From the NCBI GenBank assembly GCA_030428185.1, contig JAUICE010000002.1:14000-77999 (forward strand): DNA of 64,000 nucleotides, in the 5' to 3' direction. The translations under genes were made by a program, and so were the position numbers. Below, in pieces: positions 2,857 to 23,626 of the stretch. Numbering within the stretch: the stretch's first letter is position 1; each line of letters begins with the position of its first letter. Source of the DNA: Gammaproteobacteria bacterium. GTDB lineage: Bacteria > Pseudomonadota > Gammaproteobacteria > Legionellales > Legionellaceae. The notes below the pieces were generated by a model. The model saw only the letters and a program-made list of their open reading frames with translations, did no database searches and was not told the DNA's origin.

Positions 2857-2857
2857 A

Positions 2858-5735: not shown

Positions 5736-5743
5736 TAAGCCGC

Positions 5744-7823: not shown

Positions 7824-7824
7824 G

Positions 7825-8601
7825 TTACCTCCTTGTTTGATGTATGGCTTTTTTATTAAATACCGATGCCGCACGCTTTGAACCCTCTCTTAGGGTAAAT
7901 TGTGGCGCTGTAAAATGCGCGACCAAGTAATTACCTTGTCTTCGTAAGTTAACCACTGATTCGCAGCCAGACTTATCTGAGATGGCGAATACTGCAGGGA
8001 CTGATTGATTGGGCCTTAATTCAAAATAAGTGAATCGTCCATCATCAAAGACATGTAAGGGCATGACTTGTTTGTTTCCTGAAAAGCTATACTGCCAATT
8101 ATAATTTCGTGGGTTTTGAGGGGCGCTCACAAGAGAGCTCTTACGCTCATGTGCGAGCTTTAGCTTCCTATTCAGCTTTTTCTTCTCATCTAGTGGATAG
8201 ATAAATTTCACTGCGTAGGTTTGTTTGTTTTCATTGCTTAGCTCCTTTGAGGAGTTTAAATCAAAATAGTAAGTGTGCTTATTAGTGACAATAGTAAGAT
8301 TTGCCTTTAATCCCAAACTGGTTGGTTTGATAAAAAGCATATTAGCTAGGGTTTCCTGATGACTTATCATCCAGCTACTACTATCTCCTCCTTCAATGTC
8401 TTGAATGACTTCATCTTGAGAAAAAATAAGCTGTGTCGTGGTAAAGGGGCTACCTTTAATAGCGACAACATTATTTTCTTGAAAAGCCACTTGTTTGATT
8501 CGACTATCTGTTGCAAATGATAGCGGCGTTTGCTTGGCATAAGCATTCACTATAAAAACTGAAAGCAACCCCAAACCTATTTGTTTTATTCTCATTATCA
8601 C
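7825..8601 (-). CDS. virB9: VirB9 outer-membrane core-complex protein
   Basis: A signal peptide and the CagX/VirB9 family pattern (FIKPTSLGLKANLTIVTNKHTYYFDL; YSFSGN...PLHVFDDGRFTYFEL). Its position between B8 and B10 agrees. Confidence 0.9.
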   Translation of the reverse strand: MIMRIKQIGLGLLSVFIVNAYAKQTPLSFATDSRIKQVAFQENNVVAIKGSPFTTTQLIFSQDEVIQDIEGGDSSSWMISHQETLANMLFIKPTSLGLKANLTIVTNKHTYYFDLNSSKELSNENKQTYAVKFIYPLDEKKKLNRKLKLAHERKSSLVSAPQNPRNYNWQYSFSGNKQVMPLHVFDDGRFTYFELRPNQSVPAVFAISDKSGCESVVNLRRQGNYLVAHFTAPQFTLREGSKRAASVFNKKAIHQTRR

Positions 8602-8695
8602 TCCTTTTTTAAACTTGTGCCTTTTATCGATATAGGGCTGCTATCTTGGCTTTAGACAAGTCATTGCAACGCCGTATAAAGGCAAGAGAGTAGCG

Positions 8696-9406
8696 CTAGA
8701 CGTTGCGTTGCTGCGTGTCATATCTAGTCACCTCAAAGCCCGACCAATTGAGCCACCTATCGTTTGGCGATTTCGGCATACCGGTATAACGCCAAGCAAT
8801 CATCGCGGTTCTTGTTTGCTCTTTTATTTGATGAGTGAATTTATCAGTGTCGGTCATTTTAAAAACTACTTCAGCAAGATTGTGATGTGATTGCTCTTTG
8901 TCTTTATTGAGCGATTGATTTTCTAGAAAGTTAACGCTATAGACATGAACACTTCTGTCTGCTTTAACACCTAAGGTGTTAATCGGTGAATTAGGGTTAC
9001 GTTTATTATGTAAGTCGATGTATTGCCCCGCCACATAATCACTCGATAATAAATTAGTTAGCTGATATTGGTATTGATAAGAGCTAGCACTAAAACTCTC
9101 ACGGTTAATCACATAACGGACAATATCAGACTCGACTTGCTCAGGTGTCTTAGGCTCCGCATCATTTAAAGGCTCAACCGTTGTTAATCCATTATCATAA
9201 TGGTGAATAACCAACGGCACTAACGTTCGAATATTTGTGAGCACCAATACGGTAATCACCAATAAGCAATTAAAGCCTATAGACGCACCAAATCCTAGTC
9301 GATACCAAGAAAGCGTTACCTCACGATTGGCACGACATTCATCCGCCCAAGAGCGCGCATATTTAAATATGTTCTTTTTTTGCCTGTTAGTGCTGTCCGC
9401 TTGCAT
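8696..9406 (-). CDS. virB8: VirB8 bitopic inner-membrane assembly protein
   Basis: The real start is taken as ATG 9406..9404 (MQADSTNRQKK...), which forms TAATG with the virB6 stop. It has one TM segment (LGFGASIGFNCLLVITVLVL) followed by a VirB8 NTF2-like periplasmic domain. The 334-aa track ORF is an upstream extension through virB6. Confidence 0.85.
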   Translation of the reverse strand: MQADSTNRQKKNIFKYARSWADECRANREVTLSWYRLGFGASIGFNCLLVITVLVLTNIRTLVPLVIHHYDNGLTTVEPLNDAEPKTPEQVESDIVRYVINRESFSASSYQYQYQLTNLLSSDYVAGQYIDLHNKRNPNSPINTLGVKADRSVHVYSVNFLENQSLNKDKEQSHHNLAEVVFKMTDTDKFTHQIKEQTRTAMIAWRYTGMPKSPNDRWLNWSGFEVTRYDTQQRNV

Positions 9407-10467
9407 TAAAAACCTCCTTGCAAGTGATTTTTGATGGAAGAAAAATGTTGCTTGACACGCTCCATGCCACGATAAACGGCTTGTTGTGAGCCATATGGTG
9501 TTAAGGAGCTTGCGGCTCTTGCAGAGCCCGATAAAAGTTGCTTTGATGGCATTAAGGCTTTTGATTGACTGACCACACCTAAAGTGCTGCCAACAAATGC
9601 ACCAACCATGGCCGAGCCATGTCCTGTTGAGCAGGCGCCACCAATGGATTTTGCGATACGTGATGCTTCTAAGACCACCATCACACAAAGGGCTGCGCAA
9701 AATGATAACGGCACCCAGCTCACTAACTTGATACCCGCGGCTTTAGCCAGATAATGACCACCGATAGACCAGTGCACCAAGCTTAGTGCCAAGCCCACGA
9801 CACTAGAGACAAAAATTAAAACAAACGAGTAACCAACTAAATTGCCTAACCATCTGTCAAAAAAGCTTCTTGTATTATCAAATAAAGTAAAACTGATAAA
9901 TAATGGTGCGACACAATAACAAACCGTCATCATGAGCTTTGCTACCACGATTTCAAAAAAGGCAAGGCCTACCACTAAGCAACCAGCGATATAAATAACA
10001 AGAGAGGTAAACAATGGCCCTGGATTCATCAACGAGCCTTTAGCCCAAGTCCATGTGCCGACTCGTATCACTTCAATGAGCACTGACTGTAATCCGCCAT
10101 TAATCCCAGTGCCTGTAAAAATCGGTATGTCTAATGGATTGATTTGCATTAAGACGGCACCCAATTCACTCGATGCCTTATAGGTCAAATTGACGACAAA
10201 TTCAGAAAACATGCCCCAGTTCATCGCAAAGAGATAGACAAATGTGATGCGTAGTGCGACCTTGGTAAATTCATGCACCGGTGTTTTAACGATGCCTCGT
10301 GTAATTGCCAGCCCAGTCAATGCCATATATAAAACACACGCCAACCCTAATGGCTTCTCTAATAGATTTGCTAAGGTTTTATAACCATTTACCGTATAAG
10401 CATCGGTGATTAAATTAATCTGCGCAGTTAGCTTTAAAATAATGGTGGCGTATGTGGGTACTTGCAT
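9406..10467 (-). CDS. virB6: VirB6/TrbL polytopic inner-membrane protein
   Basis: Multiple TM helices and the position between B5 and B8. The start is taken as ATG 10467 (MQVPTYATIIL...) because the upstream part of the track ORF overlaps a better small lipoprotein gene in another frame. Confidence 0.8.
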   Translation of the reverse strand: MQVPTYATIILKLTAQINLITDAYTVNGYKTLANLLEKPLGLACVLYMALTGLAITRGIVKTPVHEFTKVALRITFVYLFAMNWGMFSEFVVNLTYKASSELGAVLMQINPLDIPIFTGTGINGGLQSVLIEVIRVGTWTWAKGSLMNPGPLFTSLVIYIAGCLVVGLAFFEIVVAKLMMTVCYCVAPLFISFTLFDNTRSFFDRWLGNLVGYSFVLIFVSSVVGLALSLVHWSIGGHYLAKAAGIKLVSWVPLSFCAALCVMVVLEASRIAKSIGGACSTGHGSAMVGAFVGSTLGVVSQSKALMPSKQLLSGSARAASSLTPYGSQQAVYRGMERVKQHFSSIKNHLQGGF

Positions 10468-10471
10468 GCGC

Positions 10472-10621
10472 TTAAGCCTTGTTATAATCCCAAACATTAA
10501 CCGGCGTTTGCGGGCAATACTTGCCAAAATTTGGGCATGGGCTATTGATATTCGTTTGCGCACAAGCCCCAAGTGATAACACCACCATTAAGGTACTTAT
10601 CCATTTCAATTTCTCTTTCAT
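10472..10621 (-). CDS. Small lipoprotein (49 aa), VirB7-like or entry-exclusion-like; not in the ORF track
   Basis: My translation is MKEKLKWISTLMVVLSLGACAQTNINSPCPNFGKYCPQTPVNVWDYNKA. It has a lipobox (LSLGA|C) after a hydrophobic signal sequence. The gene sits between virB5 and virB6, 15 nt after the virB5 stop and 4 nt before the virB6 ATG. Confidence 0.65.
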   Translation of the reverse strand: MKEKLKWISTLMVVLSLGACAQTNINSPCPNFGKYCPQTPVNVWDYNKA

Positions 10622-10636
10622 TTAAACCTCCACTGT

Positions 10637-11365
10637 TTACTCATCGGGTAATTGGTTAAACGATGCCATCTGCTCTTCGATAAAAAGCTTGTTTTCTTTA
10701 TCGCTTGCAGACTGTTTATTTAGGATGCTTAGTTGCTTTAAGATTTCGGTTTGCACATTGGCATTTTCAGCGGTGAGTCTCGCATTTAAATCAATGGCGC
10801 TTTTGCTATTGCTTGCTTTTTCAATTTCACTGCTTAATTTATGGATATTGTCAAAGTGCTGATTAACACGGTTATAGCTTGCGGTCGCTTGTGAGTCCGC
10901 GTTTTGTGCTAAGAGCTTATTGTCTTTGTATTTTTTATAGTTCGTACTTTCTTGACCTTTAAATAGCTTGCTATCTAATAAGGGATGTGATTTTTGATAG
11001 GATTTAAGTAGCGACTGGTAGCGAGACGAGTTGCCCCCAGAGATATTATTGATGGTATCTTGCCAATTATCAGCAGACCATTGTCTATCTTTTAAATCAT
11101 TTAGCGTGTTTTTAAGATTACCCCAGCCGTAATTGCCTTGATTAAAATCTTTAAGGCGCGATAATTCTTGTAATTGGTCTTTGGTGGCGGTTAGTTGTGA
11201 TTTAGCCTCATTTAAGGTATCAAGTGAGATGCCGTATTGACGCATGATGCCATCGGCAATGTGCTTTATGGGCCCTAATAAATCATCAACAATACCCGCA
11301 TGTGACGAAAGGGAAGTTAATATCAATCCGACGACTACAGCTTTTTTATAATTATTTACGTGCAT
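10637..11365 (-). CDS. virB5: VirB5/TrbJ-family minor pilus protein
   Basis: A signal peptide and a helical Q/N/K-rich 240-aa protein located immediately after virB4 (10-nt overlap). Confidence 0.75.
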   Translation of the reverse strand: MHVNNYKKAVVVGLILTSLSSHAGIVDDLLGPIKHIADGIMRQYGISLDTLNEAKSQLTATKDQLQELSRLKDFNQGNYGWGNLKNTLNDLKDRQWSADNWQDTINNISGGNSSRYQSLLKSYQKSHPLLDSKLFKGQESTNYKKYKDNKLLAQNADSQATASYNRVNQHFDNIHKLSSEIEKASNSKSAIDLNARLTAENANVQTEILKQLSILNKQSASDKENKLFIEEQMASFNQLPDE

Positions 11366-13791
11366 ACACCACTCCTTTCAATATAATCTGGCAGCCAATC
11401 GGTTGGGTTATAGCCTTTTTCAATAATGAGTTCGTCAAGCAATCGATTAGACTTCTCAGTTGCTGATAGCACTCTGAGCTCTTCTTTCAGGGCACTTAAA
11501 TCTAGCTTACAGAGTATCGACTCATGCTCTTGCTTATAGAGAAATAAGCGTGATGAGGGGTTATTGCTAGCAATTGCCTGGTATTCAGCGGAATTTAGCT
11601 TTAATTCATCGCAGTAAATATTTTCTTTGGCACTGGGATTGGGGAATAAAATCAAGGTCGCTTTGTTATCCATGATTTGCGCATGAATACTGGACTCCAC
11701 TATCGTTTGTGGCGACTGTGTCATCATAATCACATGCGCATTTTTCTTTCGGATAGTAGGTAGCCACTCCGATAACACCTTTTGCCAATACGGAGAACCT
11801 AAAACCTGCCAAGTCTCATCGATAACAATTGAGGTAAGCTTTCCATCTAGCGATTCACGCATACGATGTAATAAATACATATAAACCGGCGTTGAGATAT
11901 GATGAGTTACCGAGTCCATTAAAAAGCTCACATCAAAGCCATTGATTGCTTTATTAAGTGATAGCGAGTCCTCTTCATTATCAAATAGCCACGCATATTC
12001 GCCGTCTTTACGCGCACCTTCTCCTTTTAACCAGCGTTTAAGCTCGTTATGTCTTGGGAAGTCATGCGGCAAGCATTTGGCAACAACACTTAAGCATCGA
12101 TATTTGCCCTCTAAATCATCAAAAGCATAATCGACACAGTCATTGACCACTTCAGATAGCTCGCCATCCAAAATCACTTCATCTGATTTAAAAAGCAGCG
12201 AGCAAAACCATTGCTTGATAAAACTTCTATTTTCTTTGCTGTCTGGCAGCTTAAACGGGTTAAAGTGAACCCTGTCTGAATTAGAAGGCTTTACTATCGT
12301 GTAAGTCCCATCATTGGCTAACACAAAAGGACGTGACGCCTCATCGCGCTCTAGATAAAAACTCCTTCCTTGATAGCGCATTAGTTGCGCCACTAAAAAA
12401 TTAGCGAGCACCGTTTTACCAGCGCCATTGCCGCCAATGATTAAGGTGTGACCTTTGGAGGGATTATCTTTTGAGCCTTTGGCATGTAAATTTAAATAGA
12501 CGTTTTTTTTTGAGGGGGTATCAACTAGCGTTACAGCACTGCCTAGATGATTTTCATCTTGATATCCTTGCGGCTCATTATGTAGTGCACAGAAGTCTGC
12601 AAAGTTCTTTGCTGTTATCAATGCACGTCGAGCCAAAAAGAGTTGATTGGTTGGTATTTGGCTGAAAAATGCCGCCTCTAACCCTAAATTTTCTTTAAAG
12701 ACCGTAATACCAGAAAGCGCGTAGGCTTTACTGGCTTTATTGATTGCCTCCTCTAGCTTGGATTCCGTATCATTTATCAACATCAAAGAGTGCTGGTAAT
12801 GGCCTAGTAATGTTTTATCACTAGCGATTTCATCTTCAAGATGAGATAAATCGCTAATCTGGGTTTCAGCTAAGTCATTTGCTGAGTGTAACTTACCCCG
12901 CTTTAAATCAATCGCCTTAAGTGATTCATAACGTGCCGCAACCTCAAAGCTATGTGTTGCAATAAACTCATTATCAATCGATTGTATTGGGTCAAAGATG
13001 ATGTTTGCGCTATGCGATGGGTATTGCTTGATAGAAAGCATCGCTGCAAAGCGTGTATCATCCTTGCCTGCACCCTGAAACTGGATGTTTGAGCCAAATA
13101 GAATTTGCTTTTGACAAAGGTATGGCGATATTTTTCCCTCAGGATAAAGCGCGTTATCCCCTTTAACCTTAATGCCACATCCCGCATTAGTAAAAAGTGA
13201 TAAAAAATATAAAAGCTCGCTATAACCTTTTTCTTTATCATTTTCACCAAGCAACGCTGGGTTGAACGATGATAGCTTTGATAGCAGCTCGTCACGCTTT
13301 TGTATTAAGCGATTTATTTGTGTTTCTCTTGTTGCGCTGTAAGCACTCATTGTTTTTGAGTGCGAATAGCTTTTTAACGATACAACTGGGCCTGAAGACT
13401 TGTGACTGCTTTTTAAAATAAGCGTGAAATAAATGTCATTGCAGTAGCTGTTTTTAGTTTTTAAGGCATTAAAGTAGGCTTGATTGATTTGGCTTGCAAA
13501 TGCCGATTTAAATTCACTAGTTAATCTCATGTCAGCTTTTCTTCTATGAATAGTAACATGCGTAATAAAACTCTCATCCAAGCCTAAAAGCGCTTGATGA
13601 AGTTCAAGGTGTAATTGATTGAGCTTGATATTTTCTTGTGTTGCATAAGGCACACCCTCGATTTTAAAAGTAGAGCCAATATGACCATCAGCTGACTCAA
13701 AGATAGTTTCGCTATTTAAATGGGTTATCGGGAATACATCAGATAAGCTCATTTCTTTTTTCGTTAACACCAATGAATTAAAAGGGTTCAT
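11356..13791 (-). CDS. virB4: VirB4 ATPase
   Basis: 811 aa with Walker A IIGGNGAGKTVLANF and a CagE/TrbE/VirB4 layout. It overlaps virB3 by 14 nt. Confidence 0.93.
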   Translation of the reverse strand: MNPFNSLVLTKKEMSLSDVFPITHLNSETIFESADGHIGSTFKIEGVPYATQENIKLNQLHLELHQALLGLDESFITHVTIHRRKADMRLTSEFKSAFASQINQAYFNALKTKNSYCNDIYFTLILKSSHKSSGPVVSLKSYSHSKTMSAYSATRETQINRLIQKRDELLSKLSSFNPALLGENDKEKGYSELLYFLSLFTNAGCGIKVKGDNALYPEGKISPYLCQKQILFGSNIQFQGAGKDDTRFAAMLSIKQYPSHSANIIFDPIQSIDNEFIATHSFEVAARYESLKAIDLKRGKLHSANDLAETQISDLSHLEDEIASDKTLLGHYQHSLMLINDTESKLEEAINKASKAYALSGITVFKENLGLEAAFFSQIPTNQLFLARRALITAKNFADFCALHNEPQGYQDENHLGSAVTLVDTPSKKNVYLNLHAKGSKDNPSKGHTLIIGGNGAGKTVLANFLVAQLMRYQGRSFYLERDEASRPFVLANDGTYTIVKPSNSDRVHFNPFKLPDSKENRSFIKQWFCSLLFKSDEVILDGELSEVVNDCVDYAFDDLEGKYRCLSVVAKCLPHDFPRHNELKRWLKGEGARKDGEYAWLFDNEEDSLSLNKAINGFDVSFLMDSVTHHISTPVYMYLLHRMRESLDGKLTSIVIDETWQVLGSPYWQKVLSEWLPTIRKKNAHVIMMTQSPQTIVESSIHAQIMDNKATLILFPNPSAKENIYCDELKLNSAEYQAIASNNPSSRLFLYKQEHESILCKLDLSALKEELRVLSATEKSNRLLDELIIEKGYNPTDWLPDYIERSGVCT

Positions 13792-14065
13792 AACACCTCA
13801 CACCCCAGATAGACTTATTTAGTTGATTGGGAAGCAGAAATTTTGCTTTAAGCACATTAAAAAAATGCGGGTCGATACGGCATATTTGCCAACCGATTAA
13901 ATGCAGTGGGAAATAACAAAGCCCGTAAAGCAAGTTACCTGTTGCGATTAAAAGTGCCATCGCAACGATTAAGTTAATGCCAAAGACTTCTAACGTGACG
14001 CCGGCTGTTAATGCCGGTCTCGTTAGCGCGCCATAGAGTGGATTTATCATGAGGTTTTCTTCCAT
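13778..14065 (-). CDS. virB3: VirB3 inner-membrane protein
   Basis: 95 aa with LYGALTRPALTAGV followed by two TM helices, a typical VirB3 pattern. It lies between virB2 and virB4. Confidence 0.85.
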   Translation of the reverse strand: MEENLMINPLYGALTRPALTAGVTLEVFGINLIVAMALLIATGNLLYGLCYFPLHLIGWQICRIDPHFFNVLKAKFLLPNQLNKSIWGVRCYEPF

Positions 14066-14067
14066 AA

Positions 14068-14352
14068 CTAACCTACCAGCGCGCTATAAATTGATGAGCT
14101 ACCAAAGACCACGCCTAAACCAATGAGCGTTAACAAAAACTGCTCTTTGGGAAAACGTTGCTTAAAGATACAAAGGTAGCCCGAGCCAACCACTGCAATA
14201 AGACCTATGCTTTTAGCCACATCACCTTGTAAGAACCCAACTAGCTTATCTAAGATGCTGGTAATGGTGATATGGCCACTGCTAGCAAGCGCATCCAATG
14301 GCAGCAGTAAACTTACCGCTAGTGGAATAAGAAAGTGTTTTATTTTCATCAT
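14068..14352 (-). CDS. virB2: VirB2/TrbC-type pilin
   Basis: 94 aa with a long signal peptide (…DALA|SS) and two hydrophobic helices. It is the first gene of the virB cluster. Confidence 0.8.
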   Translation of the reverse strand: MMKIKHFLIPLAVSLLLPLDALASSGHITITSILDKLVGFLQGDVAKSIGLIAVVGSGYLCIFKQRFPKEQFLLTLIGLGVVFGSSSIYSALVG

Positions 14353-14388
14353 GAATTCCTTGTAAATCTGAAAAACTTAAGCAAGAGT

Positions 14389-14571
14389 TCAAGCTTTATA
14401 TCGAGCTTGAATCACCTTTTCATTAAAGAGCTCTTCCCTATCAATATCGACATCCCTGTCCGCCAAAAACGCTAAGCGCACACTGGTTCCAACAACACCC
14501 AATACTTTGACAAATATCCGACCGTTATCTATGACGACCTGCTGCCCTTCTCTTCTATCTAAAACCAACAT
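14389..14571 (-). CDS. csrA: CsrA-family RNA-binding regulator paralog (ICE-associated, LvrC/CsrT-like)
   Basis: MLVLDRREGQQVVIDNGRIFVKVLGVVGTSVRLAFLADRDVDIDREELF aligns with canonical CsrA [48 protein letters not shown]. It lies directly upstream of virB2, as in the Legionella lvh/ICE loci. Confidence 0.88.
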   Translation of the reverse strand: MLVLDRREGQQVVIDNGRIFVKVLGVVGTSVRLAFLADRDVDIDREELFNEKVIQARYKA

Positions 14572-15798: not shown

Positions 15799-16171
15799 CG
15801 CTGTTAAAAACCAATATCAAATGGTTATATTTGATATCACATATTACTCACTATGAACTTTATTCTTTCAGAATATGTTTTTTTATTTTATTCAGTCAAT
15901 GAATTTCTAGCTATGTAACTAAATGAACTTGAATGAAATTCTAGTCAGTTAATTTCATTAAGTGGTCGACTTCAGCGCTGTGTAGCAGCGTTATAACTCG
16001 CTAAAAAACAAAATCAAGTTTGTAGGTGACAGGTCCTTTTTTATGTTGCCATGATTCACTCGCAATATTCCTAGGACGGTATTATTATCTCTCTGTGCTC
16101 ATTTGTTAGCCATAATTGGTTTTCATGGTATCATCCTTGGAACTCAATTCTTAACTTTAAAACAGTTTTTC

Positions 16172-17419
16172 ATGGAAAAAACATCTCGTAAATATGGGGT
16201 AGTTGTTAGAGTAAAAAGAAGGATCTCCGATATTTATTTCGATATACCCTGCTTAACAAAAAAAGTCCTCCCAGTAGTTATTTTTGAGCAATTAGTGGCG
16301 GCATTTTGTTTAAATATTTCAGCATATTTTACCAAGGTTGATCGTATGCATTTCGGTAAAATTGGCGAATACATATCTTTTTTCTATTGGGGCAGTTTAG
16401 TTGGCGCATTGCTAGGTGCTTTCTTAACTTTACGTATTAGGAGTACCAAAATTTCTGGTGTTTGTCTTGTGGCTCTTGGTATATCTTTATATTTTCTATG
16501 TTCCTCGACAGATACTTTTAAAATATGTTTGGCAATGCTTTTTATGGGGGCCGCGGGTACAACAGCAGCGACAAGCAATAGCTCAAGTTTGATTCGATCT
16601 GTTGGTGATGCTAGTCATACAAAGTTAAAAATAATTAGTTTGGAATTAATATCGTTTAATTTATGTTTTTCATTCATGTCTTACATATTGATGTATTTAA
16701 CTCCGATTCAAATAGTTTTATTTTCTAAATTCTTATCATACGGACTAATTGTAATAGGAGGATATTCTCTCTTATATCTACAAAATAATATTTTTCATTC
16801 TATATATGAGAAGAAATTACTCAAGATGAAGCTAATACTTCCTAATGAAAAATGGAATTTTTCCGTTTTAATGATTATGGTTGTTTTATTTGGTTTGATT
16901 TTTTCAATGGTTAAGGTTATTTATACCCCAACCTTAATTAACAGGTTTGGTAACAGTCTTATTTCAGTTGCTGTTGCTTCAATCAATCCATGGCTTGTTT
17001 TTATCGTCCAGCCATTAATAATTGATAAAATTAAAAAAGGTAGTTCTTCATGGTGTCTAGGAGCGGGCGGGCTTATTACTGGAAGCAGTTACTTTATATT
17101 TGGTTTTGCAAGTTCATTTTGGTTGACAGCCATATCGTTAGTATTCTTAACATTTGGGGAGATGTTGTTTGCTCCACTATCGAAGCATTACTGTGTGCAG
17201 TCTTTTAAAAAAGGAGAAGAAGGTCTTGCTTTAGGTGTTTGGCGTTTTTTCTTTCTTGGGAGTGGGACAATTGGTCCAGAAATTTCAGGATTAATAGCTG
17301 ATAACTATGGAAGTAGTTTTGTTTGGGGACTTTGTGGCGTGTTTGGTTTGGGTTGCTTGCTTTTTTCAACGAGCTTAAAAGAGATGAAAAACAAAACAAA
17401 ATGTGTGATGATAAACTAA
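16172..17419 (+). CDS. MFS-type transporter (about 12 TM helices)
   Basis: Hydrophobic throughout with regularly spaced TM helices. The track starts at TTG 16103; the first ATG is at 16172 (MEKTSRKYG). It is the first gene of a tight three-gene plus-strand cassette. Confidence 0.7.
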   Translation: MEKTSRKYGVVVRVKRRISDIYFDIPCLTKKVLPVVIFEQLVAAFCLNISAYFTKVDRMHFGKIGEYISFFYWGSLVGALLGAFLTLRIRSTKISGVCLVALGISLYFLCSSTDTFKICLAMLFMGAAGTTAATSNSSSLIRSVGDASHTKLKIISLELISFNLCFSFMSYILMYLTPIQIVLFSKFLSYGLIVIGGYSLLYLQNNIFHSIYEKKLLKMKLILPNEKWNFSVLMIMVVLFGLIFSMVKVIYTPTLINRFGNSLISVAVASINPWLVFIVQPLIIDKIKKGSSSWCLGAGGLITGSSYFIFGFASSFWLTAISLVFLTFGEMLFAPLSKHYCVQSFKKGEEGLALGVWRFFFLGSGTIGPEISGLIADNYGSSFVWGLCGVFGLGCLLFSTSLKEMKNKTKCVMIN

Positions 17420-17447
17420 TAAGATCTAAAAACAATGAAGAGTGAAT

Positions 17448-17633
17448 ATGAATATATATAACTACTTGGTGACGTTAGCATTAAAGCCGTTATCTCTGAA
17501 AAATGAAAGAGACATGAGTTCATTGGATTCTTTAGGTACCTCATCTAAAATAAAGGACATGCTATCTCAACAAGGGTATGAAGAAATTCATGGAGATAAG
17601 CTAGCCTGTGAAACAAGAGCCCCGGATTTATAA
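17448..17633 (+). CDS. Small peptide (61 aa from ATG 17448; 63 aa from GTG 17442), candidate RiPP precursor for the adjacent methyltransferase
   Basis: GAAGAG lies 5 nt upstream of ATG 17448. The ORF ends 21 nt before the methyltransferase start. Sequence: MNIYNYLVTLALKPLSLKNERDMSSLDSLGTSSKIKDMLSQQGYEEIHGDKLACETRAPDL. No family was recognised; the call rests on position only. Confidence 0.35.
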   Translation: MNIYNYLVTLALKPLSLKNERDMSSLDSLGTSSKIKDMLSQQGYEEIHGDKLACETRAPDL

Positions 17634-17654
17634 GTGATTTTCTAAGATTGTAAA

Positions 17655-18440
17655 ATGAACGAGTTATACATTGTTGGCTCCGGTATCAAATTTTTATCTC
17701 ATTTAACCCTTGAAGCCAAGGCATTAATTAATGAGGCAGACTGTGTATTGTATCTTTTAAATGAAACAGCCATGAAGCACTGGGTAGTTGAAAATTCAAA
17801 AAAAGCTATTTCTTTAGATGATATATACTTTTCTAGTGAAAAGCGCACTGAGTCATATCGTAAAATAGCTTCAAAAGTTATAGATATTTCTTTACAGCAT
17901 AGAAATACATGTTTTGTGATCTATGGACATCCACTTGTCCTATGTGAGCCAGTAGTAAAAATCATTCGATCAGACTCAAGACAATCTAATAAACTAAGAG
18001 TGAATGTTTTGCCGGGTATATCGAGTCTTGATTGTTTATTCAGTGACCTGGAGGTCGATCCTGGAGAGTTTGGTATTCAAGCATTTGAGGCAACAAATTT
18101 TGTAACGCATGACTATGATTTCTCTATTCATTCAAATTTAGTTTTGTGGCAAATAGGAGTCTCTGGTATCACAAGCATTGTTTCAACAGAAAATGAGCAG
18201 TTAGAAGCAAAGAGGTTGAAGTCTATCGCATTAATAACTAAAAAATTACTCAAAAAATATGACTGGAATCATGAAGTTTACTTGTATGTGGCCGCACAAT
18301 ATCCACAAATTTCTTGTGAAATTCAAAAAATAAAACTATGTGATTTGCCCAACGTGAGCATAAATCGATTAGCTACAGCATATATCCCGCCTTTAGGTTA
18401 TGCAAAAAAAAGTAGCAAAGTATTAAAGGATTTATCCTAG
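17655..18440 (+). CDS. Stand-alone borosin-type peptide alpha-N-methyltransferase (tetrapyrrole-methylase fold, OphMA/SonM-like)
   Basis: Motif-by-motif match to the OphMA methyltransferase domain as I recall it:
- LYIVGSGIKFLSHLTLEA vs LTIVGTGIESIGQMTLQA
- KRTESYRKI vs SRLNTYTQM (catalytic R/Y spacing)
- VIYGHPLVL vs VFYGHPGVF
- LPGISSLDCLFSDLEVDP vs LPGVSAEDCLFADLCIDP
- IHSNLVLWQIGVSG vs IHSHLVLFQVGCVG
- ATAYIPP vs STFYIPP
At 261 aa it has no fused clasp or core region. Confidence 0.75.
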   Translation: MNELYIVGSGIKFLSHLTLEAKALINEADCVLYLLNETAMKHWVVENSKKAISLDDIYFSSEKRTESYRKIASKVIDISLQHRNTCFVIYGHPLVLCEPVVKIIRSDSRQSNKLRVNVLPGISSLDCLFSDLEVDPGEFGIQAFEATNFVTHDYDFSIHSNLVLWQIGVSGITSIVSTENEQLEAKRLKSIALITKKLLKKYDWNHEVYLYVAAQYPQISCEIQKIKLCDLPNVSINRLATAYIPPLGYAKKSSKVLKDLS

Positions 18441-19786
18441 AAATTTGTAGGTGTTATTTGAACACAACCCCTTAGAAATTGACCCTCAAAACAAAAGTCA
18501 GTGTAGTTTTTTTTCTTCTCTGTCGAGAACACAAATCTTGGATCAATCTCACACAAGCGTCTTGTATTTTGAATCTGTTTGCTATTTTTAGGTGGAATAT
18601 TATGGAAATAGGAAAAGGATACATTATTATGAAGCTCAGAGAATACTGTTCCAGATAACATAGAGCTTTCTTTGCTCATTTCCTCAATAAATCTAGACAG
18701 AATACCATCCATAATTTCAATTTCCTGATTGGCAGTTACTCTTTCATTTTTCTTTGTCAAAAAATGGGGGGTAGTTGGATTTTGGAATGAATAATATACA
18801 GGATCTTTTTCCAACTCATATGAGAGCGAGTGGGGTACCATTATAGTCGGAAATTTCTTTAACTGAAAAGATTCGGAGATCAAAGGTTGAATTTCATCTA
18901 TAGGTAAGAGTTCATTATTAACAGCAGGAATATATCCGGGGTGTTCACCAAGAGCGATCTTAATAAGATGAATAGCAGAGTTCGTTAAATATGGACTGGA
19001 TATTCTAAGATTCCTATCTTTTTGAACTTTTGAATAGAAAATATCATAGAATACACTATTTGAATTAAAAGAATCTTTCGTGCTTTTACCTTCTAAAATA
19101 TAGTTTTTTACTTGCTCCCAGGCTGAGTCATTAGTAATTGCATTTATCCACTTGCTGCTGAAATAAGCCAAGCATAATTTCCATTTTGTATCACTACATT
19201 CACTAATAGCCTTAAAGAGAGAAAAATGATCTGATGATTTTCTTGGTGTAGAAATATCAGCTCCAATATTCCTTTTAAGTCTGTTGATTCCTATATGGCT
19301 ATTAATACTTGGAAGCATGAAGGCAGTTCTTGAGCCGGCGGTCGCTTTTAATATGCCATTTGGAGTATAAATTCTACCTTTTTGTTTCTTTAGAAGAATG
19401 CCTTTGTTGAAAATTGTGCCTGGGCCATCTACTTGAAAGGGTATCACTTGGTCTGAAAACTCAATGTAGTATTCAAGTTGTTTCTCAAGTATTACGCCTA
19501 GTGGTGATGAAAACATACCATAGCCAAGATCAGTAACAATCTTTTTATCTACATCCGGGGATGACATGCTTATAAAACCACCATCCTGCGTAGGTAAAAA
19601 TGAGTTCGATGTATCGCCCTTTAGCATCCCGTATGGAAAATATAAGAGATAAATTGGAAAACTCTTACCTGGAGAAACATCATCAATCAATTTTGTTAAG
19701 TGAGGATCAACTTTACTAAATCTTCCTCTTACATTATCCCACGAGGTTCTTACAGTTCCTTTATTTTCATCATTTGATACTAACAT
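18437..19786 (-). CDS. Hypothetical protein, 449 aa, no recognisable family; convergent with the methyltransferase and overlapping it by 4 nt
   Basis: A long uninterrupted ORF in AT-rich cargo DNA. Its stop codon shares the palindrome CTAG with the methyltransferase stop. No TM segment, signal peptide or catalytic motif was recognised by eye. Confidence 0.6.
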   Translation of the reverse strand: MLVSNDENKGTVRTSWDNVRGRFSKVDPHLTKLIDDVSPGKSFPIYLLYFPYGMLKGDTSNSFLPTQDGGFISMSSPDVDKKIVTDLGYGMFSSPLGVILEKQLEYYIEFSDQVIPFQVDGPGTIFNKGILLKKQKGRIYTPNGILKATAGSRTAFMLPSINSHIGINRLKRNIGADISTPRKSSDHFSLFKAISECSDTKWKLCLAYFSSKWINAITNDSAWEQVKNYILEGKSTKDSFNSNSVFYDIFYSKVQKDRNLRISSPYLTNSAIHLIKIALGEHPGYIPAVNNELLPIDEIQPLISESFQLKKFPTIMVPHSLSYELEKDPVYYSFQNPTTPHFLTKKNERVTANQEIEIMDGILSRFIEEMSKESSMLSGTVFSELHNNVSFSYFHNIPPKNSKQIQNTRRLCEIDPRFVFSTEKKKNYTDFCFEGQFLRGCVQITPTNF

Positions 19787-19985
19787 CTTGATAACTTAAC
19801 AGCTCGATATAAATACACTTATAAAAATGGTTTTTATAAGTATTATACATTATGCCTTTTAAAAGTGATTTGGTAAATAAGAGATTTGTGTTCGAATAAC
19901 AGCCAATTAGATTGGCTAAATAAATTTTTAGGAGAATGACAGGAACATGATTAATTTAAGTTAGGAGTAAAAAAATTTTTTTCAA

Positions 19986-20222
19986 ATGAATTCAACAAAT
20001 GGAGTAATCTCAATGCAAAAAAGAAATTCTAAGGAATTGCCGCAGGAAATTTTATTTATCACCGATATTGAAAAAATGATTGGAAGAAATCGATTAACGC
20101 TGCGACGTTGGTGGACCGATGGTAAATTTCCTAAGCCTATCAAACTACACGGAACTACGCTGGCATGGTCAAAAAGTACAATTGAAAGATGGATTGAAGA
20201 TAGTATAGAGATCAAAAATTAA
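19986..20222 (+). CDS. alpA: AlpA-family (prophage CP4-57-type) HTH regulator/excisionase
   Basis: ILFITDIEKMIGRNRLTLRRWWTDGKFPKPIKLHGTTLAWSKSTIERWI matches the AlpA pattern (…RSTIYRL…G.FP.P..LG…V.W…EV..W). It lies upstream of the integrase. Confidence 0.8.
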   Translation: MNSTNGVISMQKRNSKELPQEILFITDIEKMIGRNRLTLRRWWTDGKFPKPIKLHGTTLAWSKSTIERWIEDSIEIKN

Positions 20223-20245: not shown

Positions 20246-20623
20246 ATGAGTAACTTATCAATTCTGCCTAGACTCATTCGTCTTAGAGATGCCCCCTCAT
20301 ATCTGGGCATGGATCGGCACCGTTTTAACAAAGAAGTAAGACCCAAAGTGACAGAAGTCCCTATGGGAACACAAGGAATAGCCTTCGATAGGCTTGATTT
20401 AGATGCTTGGGTCGACGATTATATACGCTGTAGTGGTCGTCCTGCGGTAGCCAAGCAGAGGAGTTTGGAACAATGGGACGAAAAAAATCGCCAGGTCTCT
20501 TTAAAAGGGGAAACTACTGGCATATCGATAAAGCGATCTTTGGATGTCGTATTCGAGAAAGCACTGGTACGAGCAACCTCGAAGAAGCAGAGAAATACTT
20601 TGCAAAACGTATCGAAGAAATAA
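20246..20623 (+). CDS. Second excisionase/AlpA-like small DNA-binding protein
   Basis: RLIRLRDAPSYLGMDRHRFNKEVRPKV...GIAFDRLDLDAWVDDY resembles excisionase-family HTH proteins. The 3' 151 nt overlap the integrase in another frame. Confidence 0.55.
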   Translation: MSNLSILPRLIRLRDAPSYLGMDRHRFNKEVRPKVTEVPMGTQGIAFDRLDLDAWVDDYIRCSGRPAVAKQRSLEQWDEKNRQVSLKGETTGISIKRSLDVVFEKALVRATSKKQRNTLQNVSKK

Positions 20624-21597
20624 GGCAGGCAAGTGTATTTGGTGTTCGCCCCAAGCGTACTTTTATGGAGGCAGCTATTAAGTATCTGGATGAGAATCAA
20701 CATAAACGGAGTATTAGTGATGATGCAGGTCGCTTGCGAAATCTTGTTCAGTATATAGGTAAATTACCTTTGGATGCGATTCACATGGGTACTTTGCAAC
20801 CTTTTATTGATGGTAGGCGCAAAGATGGCGTAAAAACACGAACCATTAATCATGGTTTGAAAATTGTACGCCGAATAGCGAACTTATCTTCAACAGAGTG
20901 GATCGATGAGTATGGGCTGACTTGGTTGGCTACCCCACCAAAGATAAAATTACTACCAGAGCATGATTTACGCAAGCCTTATCCGTTAAGTTGGGAGGAG
21001 CAACAAAAACTTTTTTCTGAGTTACCTTCTCATTTAGAAAAGATGGCATTATTTGCTGTCAATACTGGATGCCGTGAAAGAGAAGTGTGTCGACTACAAT
21101 GGGACTGGGAAATAAAAATCTCTGAAATGTCACATTTGACGGTATTTATCATTCCTCCTGAGCTTGTTAAAAATGGTGATGAACGACTTGTTGTTTGTAA
21201 TCAAGTTGCAAAATCGGCTGTAGATAGTCAGCGAGGAGTACATGAAAAATATGTTTTTACCTTTAAAGGGCGGCCGGTTACTCGTATAAATAATACTGGA
21301 TGGAAGGAGGCTCGCAAGAAAGCTGGATTAGAGTTTGTAAGAGTCCATGACTTAAAACATACTTTTGGTAGGCGATTACGCTCTGTTAGTGTGAGTTTTG
21401 AAGACAGGCAGGATTTATTGGGGCATCGCTCTGGCAGAATAACAACGCACTATTCATCAGCCGAGTTGCAAAATTTATATGATGCTGCAAATAAGGTTTG
21501 CGAGAAAAAACAGAGTGGGGTAGTACTTACTTTGTTACGCAACCCTAATAACCGAAAGATAGAAACAAAGCAAAATAAGAGCGCTGTGCGCTTATAA
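20473..21597 (+). CDS. int: Tyrosine recombinase / phage-type integrase
   Basis: The N-terminus GLFKRGNYWHID is typical of P4-like integrases. Catalytic signatures TGCREREV (Arg), HDLKHTFGRRLR (H-x-x-R) and LLGHRSGRITTHYS (His...Tyr) are present. GAGGAG lies 9 nt before the ATG, and the gene is adjacent to a tRNA. Confidence 0.92.
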   Translation: MGRKKSPGLFKRGNYWHIDKAIFGCRIRESTGTSNLEEAEKYFAKRIEEIRQASVFGVRPKRTFMEAAIKYLDENQHKRSISDDAGRLRNLVQYIGKLPLDAIHMGTLQPFIDGRRKDGVKTRTINHGLKIVRRIANLSSTEWIDEYGLTWLATPPKIKLLPEHDLRKPYPLSWEEQQKLFSELPSHLEKMALFAVNTGCREREVCRLQWDWEIKISEMSHLTVFIIPPELVKNGDERLVVCNQVAKSAVDSQRGVHEKYVFTFKGRPVTRINNTGWKEARKKAGLEFVRVHDLKHTFGRRLRSVSVSFEDRQDLLGHRSGRITTHYSSAELQNLYDAANKVCEKKQSGVVLTLLRNPNNRKIETKQNKSAVRL

Positions 21598-21681: not shown

Positions 21682-21758
<77 letters not shown>

Positions 21759-21805: not shown

Positions 21806-23626
21806 TTACTTTTCCTCGGTGTCAATAAAGCTACGTAATTTTTCTGAGCGCGAAGGATGTCTTAGCTTACGCAAAGCTTTTGCTTCAATTTGACGAATAC
21901 GCTCACGCGTCACATCAAACTGCTTACCAACCTCTTCTAGGGTATGATCCGTATTCATGTCAATACCAAAGCGCATTCTCAACACCTTTGCCTCTCTTGG
22001 TGAAAGGGTATGCAGAATTTCAAGCGTTGCTTCTTTTAATCCTTCAGACATAGCTTTATCAATTGGCGAGTCAATATTCACATCTTCAATAAAGTCACCT
22101 AAATGCGAGTCTTCATCATCACCAACTGGTGTTTCCATAGAAATTGGCTCTTTAGCAATCTTCAAAACTTTACGAATTTTATCCTCAGATAAATCCATTT
22201 TTTTCGATAGTTCTTCTGGAGTTGCTTCACGCCCCGTTTCCTGAAGAATTTGTCTTGAAATACGATTGAGCTTATTAATTGTTTCTATCATATGAACTGG
22301 GATACGGATCGTTCTTGCCTGATCAGCAATTGAGCGCGTAATAGCCTGACGAATCCACCAAGTTGCATAAGTAGAGAATTTATAACCACGACGGTATTCA
22401 AACTTATCCACCGCTTTCATCAAGCCAATATTACCTTCTTGAATCAAATCTAAAAATTGTAGACCACGATTCGTATATTTCTTCGCAATAGAAATAACCA
22501 AGCGTAAGTTCGCTTCGACCATTTCCTTTTTAGCACGACGCGCTTTCGCTTCACCAATCGACATACTGCGATTAACCGACTTAATCTCAACAATCGATAA
22601 ACTATACTGCTCTTCAAGCGCTTTCAATTTTCGCTGTAAACGCTGTACCTCGATAGCAAAATCGCCAAGCTCTCCATGTTTATCCGTCCATGAAAGATCT
22701 GTCTCATGACCAGGAAAAGACTTGATAAAAATCTTTCTTTTCATCTTCACTTTATTAATACAAATCTTCATGACATCACGTTCATGTGCACGAATTTCAG
22801 TAAGCATATTTCTTACATAACGAGTTAGCTTATCAACCTGCCTAGGCGCCAGCTTAATTTTTAGAAATGCTTCACTCATTGCATCAATGGCTGCTTGTGA
22901 TTTCTTGTGCTCACGACCATGCTTTTCTATAAGAGAAAGTGCTGCATCATAATGTTTACGAATTTCGGTAAAGCACTCTCTTGCTCTTTCTGGATCTGGA
23001 CCGGTATCTCCCTCGTCTCCATCATCATCGTCGTCATCAATATCATCATCAATATTTTGATCATCAGATAACACACTACCAATTTCACTCACTGGAGCAT
23101 CATCCTCATCTTCAGCAAAGCCTGTGATTAGCTCACCTAAACGCATATCTTCAGCTTCGATATGGTCATATTTCTCTAATATCAACTTGATGGTTTGCGG
23201 ATAGCGGGCGAGAGAAGTCAGTACTTGGTGAATACCTTCTTCAATTCTTTTAGCAATTTTAATCTCACCTTCACGCGTAAGAAGCTCGACCGTTCCCATC
23301 TCACGCATATACATTCGAACTGGATCCGTTGTTCGCCCCGTCTCTTTGTCCACAGAAGCGAGCACGGAAGCTGCTTCATCTAAATCATCAGGTGTTTCTT
23401 CTGTATCTTCTCCAAGTAACGCCAGTTCATCTTCACTTGGTGGCTGCTCAAAGACTTTAATGTTCATATTCTCGAGCATGCCAATAATGACATCAAAATG
23501 ATCTGCATCAACAATATTGGTTAATACATCATTAATATCGGCATAAGATAGATAGGTTTGCTCTTTACCTTTTTTGATTAGCGCGGTGATTTGCGAGCGT
23601 TGCTGTTCTTGATCGGTGATATTCAT
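21806..23626 (-). CDS. rpoD: RNA polymerase primary sigma factor sigma-70
   Basis: 606 aa with an acidic region 1.1/NCR ([15 protein letters not shown]), region 2 ([37 protein letters not shown]) and region 4 ([28 protein letters not shown]). Confidence 0.98.

Follow-up and report, generated by a model that had tools for sequence, protein, structure and literature searches.

A putative split borosin-type RiPP cassette of the Legionella lineage, with an obligate 449-aa partner protein, on a conjugative element

On a slight balance of probability, the region at 16103-19786 of the window, the whole stretch of 64,000 nucleotides analyzed here, is a 3.8-kb split borosin-type RiPP cassette of the Legionella lineage that conjugative elements carry as cargo, with a precursor devoid of a borosin-binding domain (BBD). 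The cassette is delimited at 16125-19898 (unstranded) by its match to the metagenomic contig L029 (blastn, 93.3% nucleotide identity), in which the block of homology comprises exactly the four module genes and the flanks are entirely different from those of the window. The initial annotation is correct on the four open reading frames and the distances between them, on the motifs that it quotes, and on the lowered G+C content. The G+C content of 16103-19786 is 0.338, compared to a mean of 0.386 (standard deviation, 0.014; minimum, 0.348) for 531 other segments of the same size (z = -3.3). No promoter or terminator signals above chance were found for the cassette.

By every computational test of its sequence and structural model, the stand-alone 261-aa protein encoded at 17655-18440 on the plus strand is a borosin-type peptide α-N-methyltransferase (NMT). 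A phmmer search of the PDB retrieves SonM (2e-28), OphMA (3e-28), dbOphMA, and Mro, all with E values of ≤6e-27; the next match is at 0.6, and no corrin or diphthine methylase structure matches in sequence at an E value of ≤10. The top 50 Foldseek matches of the AF2 model (pLDDT of 93) are borosin NMTs only, with TM scores of 0.90 for OphMA (rmsd of 2.0 Å) and 0.82 to 0.85 for SonM. The enzyme thus groups with the borosin NMTs and not with the corrin or diphthine methylases, which upholds the assignment first proposed. It contains YGHP at residues 90 to 93, KRTESY at residues 63 to 68, YIPP at residues 243 to 246, LPGISSLDCLFSDLEVDP at residues 119 to 136, and IHSNLVLWQIGVSG at residues 158 to 171; LDCLFSDL at residues 125 to 132 corresponds to the DCLF-x-D motif. 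HMMs of the YGHP and DCLF-x-D motifs are used in the BorosinMT detection rule, as described in the preprint by Imani et al. (bioRxiv 10.1101/2021.12.24.474128). Tyr58, Arg64, Tyr68, and Tyr90 align with Tyr58, Arg67, Tyr71, and Tyr93 of SonM, whose mutation reduces or abolishes activity (PMC8429565), and the arginine, tyrosine, and YGHP residues align with both SonM and OphMA. Among 37 homologues, Tyr58, Tyr68, and Tyr90-Gly91 are invariant, and Arg64 is nearly so. Fold, closest relatives, active-site residues, and motifs are accordingly those of borosin NMTs, and the candidate precursor is encoded by a separate adjacent gene, with no BBD or core fused to the enzyme.

It is highly improbable that the protein is an ordinary tetrapyrrole, precorrin, diphthine-type, or YabN-like methylase in a coincidental neighborhood. 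The sole Pfam assignment is indeed the generic TP_methylase family (PF00590, 5.5e-17), and the best NCBIfam match is a YabN methylase/pyrophosphatase (E = 2.5e-20), with weak matches to precorrin methylases. Every NCBIfam score, however, lies far under its cutoff (72.9 versus 525 bits), the full set of borosin-specific residues and motifs is present, and at more than 15 loci the gene keeps its linkage with those for the peptide, the MFS transporter, and the ~450-aa protein. The PDB sequence search, the conserved active-site residues, and the Foldseek result effectively refute this reading.

The methyltransferase gene starts 21 nt past the stop codon of a small open reading frame on the plus strand with alternative starts at 17442 and 17448, both forms ending at 17633 (63 and 61 aa). 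The homologues support the ATG start of the 61-aa form, 28 nt beyond the MFS stop codon. In this candidate precursor peptide (17448-17633), the N terminus carries the conserved helix motif MNIYNYLVTLALKP, and the C-terminal tail ends in …DKLACETRAPDL. Judged by sequence, the gene is genuine and conserved, and purifying selection acts on it (dN/dS of 0.19). An HMM from 9 orthologues has a single match among the 835 open reading frames of the window (E = 6e-6; next-best frame, 0.79), and the small gene adjoins the methyltransferase in 17/17 loci examined. As it is conserved in homologous loci, the claim made for it survives. The peptides share the N-terminal helix and an acidic-x-x-V-V/T C-terminal tail. 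The latter reads A-C/N-E/D-x-x-V-V/T in the relatives and …ACETRAPDL in the window, where ETRAP differs from E-x-x-V-V/T at both of the best-conserved hydrophobic sites. The variant P0080, from a 92%-related cassette, differs by 4 substitutions, confined to the leader, with none in the last 14 residues. The ETRAP segment includes a proline, a residue that is not N-methylatable. Both the deviating tail and the proline count against a borosin precursor.

A profile of 16 peptides shows no sequence-level match to SonA in the PDB at an E value of ≤10, its hhalign comparison with SonA gives a probability of only 0.2%, and none of the 16 peptides matches Pfam LigA at an E value of ≤10. A five-helix LigA-like BBD leader is therefore not found at the sequence level, which counts against the borosin reading; in SonA, the BBD supplies most of the binding energy (PMC8429565). 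The split-borosin claim of the initial annotation consequently holds for the stand-alone NMT and the separate adjacent small gene, but the cassette is not of the canonical SonA type (type IV) because its precursor has no detectable BBD.

The cassette otherwise resembles SonM/SonA of Shewanella oneidensis (PDB 7LTC/7LTE; PMC8429565): the 261-aa protein corresponds to the 263-aa SonM end to end (residues 2 to 248 aligned, E = 2e-28), sharing the catalytic tyrosines and arginine, and both systems have a separate adjacent precursor gene of ~60 to 70 aa in which the modified region is expected to be C terminal. Unlike SonM/SonA, it also encodes an MFS transporter and a 449-aa protein that is an obligate partner, and it rides on conjugative elements. 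The fungal enzymes OphMA, dbOphMA, and MroMA share the catalytic fold (TM scores of 0.87 to 0.90, rmsd of ~2 Å, and 26 to 29% identity) as well as YGHP and DCLF-x-D. They differ in being self-methylating, with clasp/BBD and core in cis, whereas the enzyme of the window ends ~15 residues past YIPP.

In this clade, the methyltransferase is always accompanied by its obligate partner, a conserved 449-aa protein encoded convergently at 18437-19786 on the minus strand, overlapping the methyltransferase stop codon by 4 nt. It has no match in Pfam, NCBIfam, or PADLOC, no informative homologue or fold relative was found, including in the PDB, and its function is unassigned by homology. The AF2 model (pLDDT of 89 and pTM of 0.90) has a cNMP-binding/cupin-like barrel as its closest PDB fold, at a TMq of only 0.24 to 0.27. 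The C terminus is modeled with confidence as a β-strand, with no free tail. The protein is the most conserved of the module (dN/dS of 0.086) and belongs to a family of 1,296 clusters. Relatives lacking any neighboring borosin methyltransferase occur in loci L024, L025, and L028 and count against the split-borosin reading. The relative in L024 lies beside two ATP-grasp ligases and an AlaDh-like gene, with no detectable small precursor frame, and that in L028 lies beside a class-I methyltransferase. Relatives of the protein adjoin other peptide-forming or peptide-modifying enzymes and MFS/PTR2 transporters.

These features bear on an alternative that is unlikely but carries some weight, in which the true substrate of the methyltransferase is the 449-aa protein, a distal peptide, or a small molecule that the 449-aa protein produces or acts on, with the small frame acting as a regulator or chaperone. 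The peptide without a BBD, the conservation of the 449-aa protein above all other module genes, and the linkage of its wider family to non-RiPP enzymes in L024 and L028 agree with such a substrate, as do the 733 borosin-like NMTs without an identifiable precursor reported in the preprint by Lee et al. (bioRxiv 10.1101/2024.01.09.574750). Against it, the small frame stays adjacent to the methyltransferase despite several permutations of gene order and has a typical RiPP layout, with a conserved leader helix and tail around a variable middle. The confidently modeled terminal β-strand of the 449-aa protein is a poor fit for a substrate tail, and all characterized enzymes with the same active site methylate peptide backbones.

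The first gene of the cassette encodes an MFS transporter (Pfam MFS_1, 1e-13) on the plus strand. The longest frame runs from a TTG at 16103 to 17419, but the true start is likely the ATG at 16172, in agreement with the NCBI call and the lengths of homologues, giving 415 aa (16172-17419). In every locus compared, an orthologue accompanies the methyltransferase, and the dN/dS of the MFS gene is 0.23. Some related transporters match PTR2, which is more commonly associated with the uptake of peptides, and this counts against the split-borosin reading.

The co-occurrence of the peptide, methyltransferase, MFS, and 449-aa genes, suggested as a survey in the initial annotation, is seen in every Legionella-clade locus with enough flanking sequence (the window, L002, L003, L007, L009, L015 to L023, L026/27, and L029). 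Gene order permutes among these loci, and methyltransferase identity falls to 36%. Chromosomes carry the module, as do four plasmids of Legionella; PLSDB typing lists two of these as conjugative and one as mobilizable, and L003 is the fourth. Decayed copies also exist: the MFS and ~450-aa genes are both fragmented in L019, the ~450-aa gene is frameshifted in L016, and in L012 the methyltransferase is truncated, reads EGHP where YGHP is expected, and stands without partner genes. Together with the departure of the window tail from the clade consensus at the V-V/T positions, such copies lend something to the notion of a decaying or nonfunctional passenger, with intact genes, a drifted core (ETRAP), and no methylated product. 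This is improbable, since all four genes of the window keep their full length and their dN/dS values of 0.09 to 0.23, measured against a ~93%-identical relative with an identical tail, indicate continued purifying selection that includes the tail.

For the split borosin-type cassette, the following multistep mechanism is proposed. The 61-aa peptide would be translated from the gene directly upstream of the methyltransferase, and the 261-aa enzyme, presumably a homodimer like other borosin NMTs, would use SAM to methylate at least one backbone amide nitrogen in the C-terminal tail (…ACETRAPDL). Backbone methylation is suggested because the SonM/OphMA fold and the residues that preorganize the amide for SN2 methyl transfer are fully conserved. 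Recognition may proceed without a SonA-type five-helix BBD, through the short conserved leader helix and possibly the 449-aa protein. The latter, in the cytoplasm, would perform a further obligatory step, most likely the release or processing of a short modified C-terminal peptide; only its strict linkage, its top conservation, and the position of its relatives beside peptide-forming or peptide-modifying enzymes and MFS/PTR2 transporters point to this step, and the exact role is a guess because no homologue or fold match is informative. The MFS transporter may then carry the product over the inner membrane, in either direction. A small N-methylated peptide serving as an extracellular signal or antagonist would explain the repeated pickup of the module by Legionella plasmids and ICEs.

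Systems of this type are already catalogued in Legionellales through genome mining. Legionellales account for 81 sequences, or 10.9%, of the type IV borosin NMTs in the survey by Imani et al. (bioRxiv 10.1101/2021.12.24.474128). The preprint by Lee et al. (bioRxiv 10.1101/2024.01.09.574750) describes Legionellales gene clusters without a BBD, with dedicated HMMs, and phage integrases often near the Legionella cluster; an association with integrases or mobile elements is common to this published group and the window. Plasmid-borne NMTs of the present clade, those of LPE509, PC1000, and L. israelensis (WP_015445035, WP_182352919, and WP_143869580), are included in the tree of those authors. The earlier claim of novelty is therefore overstated, as these surveys already list the 81 NMTs, the BBD-less subset, and the nearby integrases. 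The cassette shares with the BBD-less group a Legionellales host, a Legionella-clade NMT, and the lack of a BBD. The precursor differs from the BoroLegA/B consensus (…LLDkiEkAVGnEYl…), as judged by the near-invariant AVGxEY signature in the HMM file: none of the six frames, in the window or in L001 to L023, contains A[VI]GxE[YF], so that no BoroLegA/B motif is found by signature search. By eye, only the first helix of the distant peptides studied here, [LI]-[DN]-x-[LF]-E-K-x-A, resembles it. The main texts of both preprints contain no occurrence of MFS or transporter, and a conserved partner of ~450 aa is not described in the parts consulted. The novelty lies in this obligate 449-aa partner, without a Pfam, NCBIfam, or PDB relative.

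By gene content, the setting is a VirB/D4 ICE integrated at tRNA-Met next to rpoD; the host is Legionellaceae-like and uncultured. The conjugation module (4173-14571, minus strand) comprises VirD4, VirB11, VirB10, VirB9, VirB8, VirB6, VirB5, an 811-aa VirB4-sized frame (11356-13791, minus strand; identity assumed from size and position), VirB3, VirB2, and a CsrA paralogue (14389-14571, minus strand). VirB3, TrbC/VirB2, and CsrA are supported by precomputed Pfam matches on an identical Logan contig, and VirD4, VirB11, VirB10, VirB9, VirB8, VirB6, and VirB5 by a Pfam scan. Downstream of the cassette lie an AlpA-family excisionase/regulator (19986-20222, plus strand; Phage_AlpA, 5.9e-7), a tyrosine integrase (20473-21597, plus strand; Phage_integrase, 3.7e-15), and tRNA-Met (CAT) (21682-21758, minus strand; ARAGORN), with its 3' end toward the integrase, followed by rpoD (21806-23626). 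The tRNA-Met marks the integration site and the right end of the element. Only one end of the element lies inside the window, which the element leaves on the left. The 3' end of the tRNA was not found a second time in the window, and no relaxase occurs among the scanned frames. A mating-pair-formation T4SS with a coupling protein and an integrase beside a tRNA site are thus present, and the location of a compositionally distinct cassette in an ICE cargo region, as first described, is confirmed by the VirB/D4 genes, the tRNA-Met, and the G+C difference (0.338 versus 0.386).

The element resembles the Legionella ICEs ICE-βox and LGI (PMC4010831 and PMC3864950) in its VirB/D4 module, adjacent csrA paralogue, tRNA-adjacent tyrosine integrase, and variable cargo in between, including metal-efflux (CusB/CusC-like) genes. 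It differs from them in carrying a RiPP-like cassette; methyltransferase or MFS cargo is not mentioned in PMC3864950. The host also differs: its RpoD has its best named matches, all Legionella or Tatlockia, at 70 to 72% identity, and the closest named homologues of the NMT are from Legionella throughout.

The candidate cassette consists of four genes, all of which were confirmed in the ORF listing. The MFS transporter ORF (16103-17419, plus strand) has a probable start at ATG 16172, yielding a 415-aa protein in agreement with the NCBI call and with homologues of 404 to 416 aa. It is followed after 28 nt by a small ORF on the same strand (17448-17633) encoding the candidate precursor peptide of 61 aa, or 63 aa if translation begins at GTG 17442. 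The methyltransferase gene (17655-18440, plus strand, 261 aa) begins 21 nt past the small ORF. A convergent 449-aa ORF on the minus strand (18437-19786) overlaps it by 4 nt. The AT richness noted earlier is borne out by a G+C content of 0.338, compared to 0.386 ± 0.014 in equal-sized windows elsewhere, the lowest of which shows 0.348 (z = -3.3). Counts of promoters and terminators in the sequence are at or below shuffle expectation.

The position of the cassette between type IV secretion system (T4SS) genes and an integration module agrees with its proposed role as cargo of an integrative and conjugative element (ICE). To its left lie two ORFs without Pfam matches, a CsrA paralogue, VirB2, VirB3, an 811-aa VirB4-sized ORF whose identity as VirB4 is assumed, VirB5, VirB6, VirB8 to VirB11, and VirD4. 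To its right, AlpA and a tyrosine integrase are followed by a tRNA-Met with its 3' end toward the integrase and then by the chromosomal genes rpoD and dnaG. Described Legionella ICEs show the same layout (PMC4010831, PMC3864950). No second att repeat is present within the window, and the other end of the element lies outside it. Left of the T4SS genes, metal-efflux cargo (1402-4087) encodes a CusB-type membrane-fusion protein with fused CusF copper-binding and heavy-metal-binding domains and a CusC-like outer-membrane factor; the corresponding efflux pump gene would lie past the window edge. The assignment of a split-borosin-type cassette to an ICE is well supported by the sequence comparisons and structure models.

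In Pfam, the 261-aa protein matches only the generic TP_methylase family (5.5e-17), and the NCBIfam matches to YabN and precorrin methylases are both below threshold. A search of all PDB sequences retrieved SonM from Shewanella oneidensis (2e-28), OphMA (3e-28), dbOphM, and MroMA in near-full-length alignments, and every match under an E value of 0.1 is a borosin α-N-methyltransferase (NMT). The AlphaFold2 model, built with 37 homologues, reaches a pLDDT of 93.1, and its best 50 Foldseek matches are borosin NMTs without exception, including OphMA (TM score of 0.90; root mean square deviation of 2.0 Å) and SonM (TM scores of 0.82 to 0.85). Each motif quoted in the initial annotation is contained in the translation. 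Tyr58, Arg64, Tyr68, and Tyr90 align with Tyr58, Arg67, Tyr71, and Tyr93 of SonM, and Glu145 and Trp165-Gln166 align with Glu146 and Trp166-Gln167. Mutagenesis of SonM showed that the aligned residues are required for catalysis and clamp closure (PMC8429565). Among the 37 homologues, Tyr58, Tyr68, Tyr90, and Gly91 are invariant, and Arg64 and His92 are nearly so. The grouping with corrin or diphthine methylases that would have spoken against the borosin assignment was thus not observed, and all computable criteria assign the predicted enzyme to the borosin NMTs. The protein ends ∼15 residues beyond the YIPP motif, which leaves no fused clasp, borosin-binding domain (BBD), or core.

A small ORF of 57 to 73 aa adjoins each inspected orthologous methyltransferase gene, mostly immediately upstream; at the metagenomic locus L022 it lies downstream, where the gene caller picked the opposite strand. 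The peptides share an N-terminal amphipathic helix, a variable middle, and a conserved C-terminal tail. In the closest clade, the helix reads M-x-x-Y-E-K-L-V-Y-L-A-x-x-P and the tail [RK]-Q-A-C-E-T-x-V-x-x-x; more distant members show [LI]-[DN]-x-[LF]-E-K-x-A in the helix and A-N-[ED]-x-x-V-[VT] or similar in the tail. A hidden Markov model (HMM) of the nine closest orthologues, with the window peptide left out, was searched against all 835 stop-to-stop ORFs (≥30 aa) of the window. The best match is 17439-17630 (E value of 6e-6), and the runner-up ORF has an E value of 0.79. Compared to L029, a contig with a 93%-identical cassette, the peptide gene shows a dN/dS ratio of 0.19 (five synonymous and four nonsynonymous changes); the L029 peptide P0080 has four differences in the leader and none in the last 14 residues. 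The tail of the window peptide, A-C-E-T-R-A-P-D-L, is atypical at two positions where its relatives carry V-[VTS]; a consensus-type tail is exemplified by the L. pneumophila LPE509 orthologue (…FACETHVVSC). Conservation of the small ORF in homologous loci, on which the initial annotation had made its reading depend, is therefore observed, and the alignments identify the ORF as a real gene family.

To our knowledge, borosin mechanisms have been worked out only in systems that tether the substrate through a five-helix BBD. The BBD is the LigA-like leader of SonA, the precursor that is modified by SonM, and the reference sequence used here matches PDB entry 7LTC chain B exactly. A BBD hidden in the window peptide was considered and rejected at the sequence level: a PDB profile search with the peptide family did not return SonA at E values of ≤10, hhalign of the family against SonA gave a probability of 0.2%, and none of 16 peptides matches Pfam LigA. 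These results agree with the available text of Lee et al., which describes a subset of Legionellales borosin gene clusters without a BBD (bioRxiv 10.1101/2024.01.09.574750). The precursor HMMs BoroLegA/B in the same text have the consensus x-n-L-L-D-k-i-E-k-A-V-G-n-E-Y-l-i-e-n-e-x-l-e-L-d-i-n, with Gly12 and Glu14 almost invariant. A regular expression derived from this consensus has no match in any reading frame, either in the window or in the comparison loci L001 to L023, which at the consensus level rules out a BoroLegA/B-type precursor and indicates a peptide subgroup outside those HMMs. The first helix of the distant peptides resembles the consensus by eye (e.g., the chromosomal locus L012, MSLLDLFIELAG…). 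The system would work similarly to the type IV split borosins but, judged from its sequence, differs from them in having no BBD. The Legionella clade appears to have lost the BBD with the catalytic machinery still under purifying selection, and substrate recognition without this domain, once understood, would widen the engineering toolbox.

The linkage of the four genes was surveyed by phmmer with the window proteins against the ORFs of L001 to L023 and in the called genes of later loci. A single-sequence scan of genome contigs found no relatives; a 9-sequence alignment retrieved five loci from genomes and eight from metagenomes. The genes for the MFS transporter, the methyltransferase, and the ∼450-aa protein co-occur on every contig of sufficient length: in L. 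steelei (L002), on plasmids of Legionella sp. D16C41 (L003), L. pneumophila LPE509 (L015), Legionella sp. PC1000 (L016), and L. israelensis (L017), and on the metagenomic contigs L007, L009, L018, L020/21, L022/23, L026/27, and L029. The peptide gene shares in this linkage, so that the co-occurrence suggested for a survey is found, and it persists down to 36% methyltransferase identity. The gene order varies, with the ∼450-aa gene upstream and codirectional in L002 and the order peptide, methyltransferase, MFS in L020. Among the carriers of the module, L. pneumophila LPE509 (plasmid) and L. israelensis L18-01051 are culturable.

The alignment with L029 bounds the mobile unit at 16125-19898 of the window. 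In L029 (9275-11062), an RND efflux operon occupies the left flank, where the window has T4SS genes, and the right flank contains a 74%-identical AlpA followed by an AbiEii/AbiEi toxin-antitoxin pair. The presence of a 93%-identical cassette in a different island shows, at the sequence level, that the 3.8-kb module can move between cargo regions. No terminal repeats mark the ends in the comparison of the window with L029, and AT-rich repeats at the ends, considered as transposon-like termini, occur at chance level only. A 16-nt inverted repeat (15 of 16 positions complementary; 18452-18467 and 19886-19901) brackets the 449-aa gene, with the outer arm at the border of the homology block. It was rejected as a cassette end since it is not kept in the 93%-identical relative or in seven other loci and is probably due to chance.

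Degraded copies of the module were also observed. L019 (3057-6750), on a 1.3-Mb IS-rich contig, carries a decayed module with fragmented MFS and ∼450-aa genes, and the ∼450-aa gene of the PC1000 plasmid is frameshifted (L016 6788-8127). L012 (632-1483) is a chromosomal remnant in which the peptide and a truncated methyltransferase, with EGHP replacing YGHP, are all that is left.

Conservation within the module is highest for the ∼450-aa protein, which has 62 to 67% identity where the methyltransferase shows 47 to 50%. Its residues Glu105, His187, Ser333, Glu355, and His395 are invariant. Compared to L029, its gene has a dN/dS ratio of 0.086, and the MFS and methyltransferase genes have ratios of 0.20 to 0.23. 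It has no match in Pfam, NCBIfam, or PADLOC, the last of which led to the rejection of a role as a defense system. A PDB profile search found no relative, a RagB match at an E value of 0.1 being judged noise. The AlphaFold2 model is confident (pLDDT of 89.4; pTM of 0.90); its best Foldseek matches in the PDB are CRP/cNMP-binding β-barrels at E values of ∼1e-3 with query TM scores of 0.24 to 0.27, and a viral library gave nothing at E values of ≤0.001. An exhaustive profile search assigned 1,296 clusters (50% identity) to the family at E values of ≤1e-3, 771 of them at ≤1e-30, nearly all with lengths of 430 to 460 aa and full-length matches. Ten sampled remote members contain no Pfam domains.

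The genomic contexts of four remote members (L024 to L028) indicate that the family is wider than the borosin clusters. In L026/27, the relative is accompanied by csrA paralogues, an MFS/PTR2 transporter, a TP_methylase, and a 63-aa peptide that belongs to the precursor family; the family resemblance of this peptide was first seen by eye, and its match to the peptide HMM (E value of 1e-18) is not independent, as the peptide belongs to the training set. In L024 (5195-12241; GCA_040960315.1), a remote homologue is grouped with genes for two ATP-grasp enzymes, an AlaDh_PNT-like protein, a 174-aa receiver-like protein, and an MFS/PTR2 transporter, and an integrase is adjacent. A search of this locus revealed neither a borosin methyltransferase nor a recognizable small precursor ORF, and it may represent a distinct small-peptide biosynthetic cluster using the 449-aa family. 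Its 174-aa receiver-like protein also flanks the borosin-type cassette of L020. The relative in L025 stands alone beside PAS-LuxR regulators, and that in L028 lies beside a class I SAM methyltransferase.

Transporters and enzymes that form or modify peptides are thus recurrent neighbors of the family. Strictly linked and highly conserved, the 449-aa protein is a concrete candidate for the missing BBD function. Tentatively, it might act catalytically on a short peptide, with processing or release of this product as the likeliest function. A broader proposal, which we regard as rather doubtful, is that it founds an unrecognized enzyme family of ∼1,300 clusters and, in Legionella borosin cassettes, stands in for the BBD: it could offer the leader to the methyltransferase, or it could cleave or cyclize the methylated tail. 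This would constitute a new borosin architecture in which a short N-methylated peptide, once exported, would serve competition or signaling among Legionella cells living in biofilms or amoebae. Outside these cassettes, ATP-grasp ligases would be the partners of the family in acting on nonribosomal small peptides.

Backbone N-methylation is a source of membrane permeability and protease resistance in peptides such as cyclosporin, and we know of no ribosomal route to it other than the borosin enzymes. The initial claim of novelty was overstated: split borosins carried by mobile elements are not new in the Legionellales. As far as the available text of the two preprints goes, Imani et al. counted 81 NMTs from Legionellales, whose NMT domains are divergent (bioRxiv 10.1101/2021.12.24.474128), and Lee et al. 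described the loss of the BBD, built HMMs for these clusters, and noted integrases nearby that suggest mobile elements. Plasmid orthologues of the window methyltransferase clade also appear in the NMT tree of Lee et al. The window system belongs to this BBD-less Legionellales group, in the available text catalogued by bioinformatics only, and the cassette is a known kind of system so far experimentally untouched. The words "MFS" and "transporter" do not occur in the main text of either preprint, and their available portions contain no defined four-gene 3.8-kb module, no obligate ∼450-aa partner or size of its family, and no placement of the module in T4SS plasmid or ICE cargo regions. The best leads for new biology are recognition without a BBD and the role of the 449-aa protein. 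As recurrent cargo of Legionella conjugative plasmids and ICEs, including L. pneumophila plasmids, the predicted small-peptide biosynthesis and transport module points to secreted-peptide interactions, so far unstudied in this group of pathogens.

The host RpoD (21806-23626) shows 70 to 72% identity with all named Legionella and Tatlockia species, compared to 83% and then 75 to 78% with metagenomic proteins. These distances place the host in an uncultured Legionellaceae-like lineage, and the source genome appears, from this protein, to represent an undescribed one. The window also contains the chromosomal replication-origin region (37980-49566), in which gyrB, recF, dnaN, and dnaA occupy the minus strand at 37980-44451. 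The gap that follows at 44.5 to 45.8 kb is AT rich (G+C content of 0.308) and coincides with the cumulative GC-skew minimum. Beyond it lie ORFs of 122 and 85 aa (45935-46548, plus strand), suggested by position to be rnpA and yidD, followed by yidC and mnmE in the same orientation. The ICE is therefore located only ∼23 kb from oriC.
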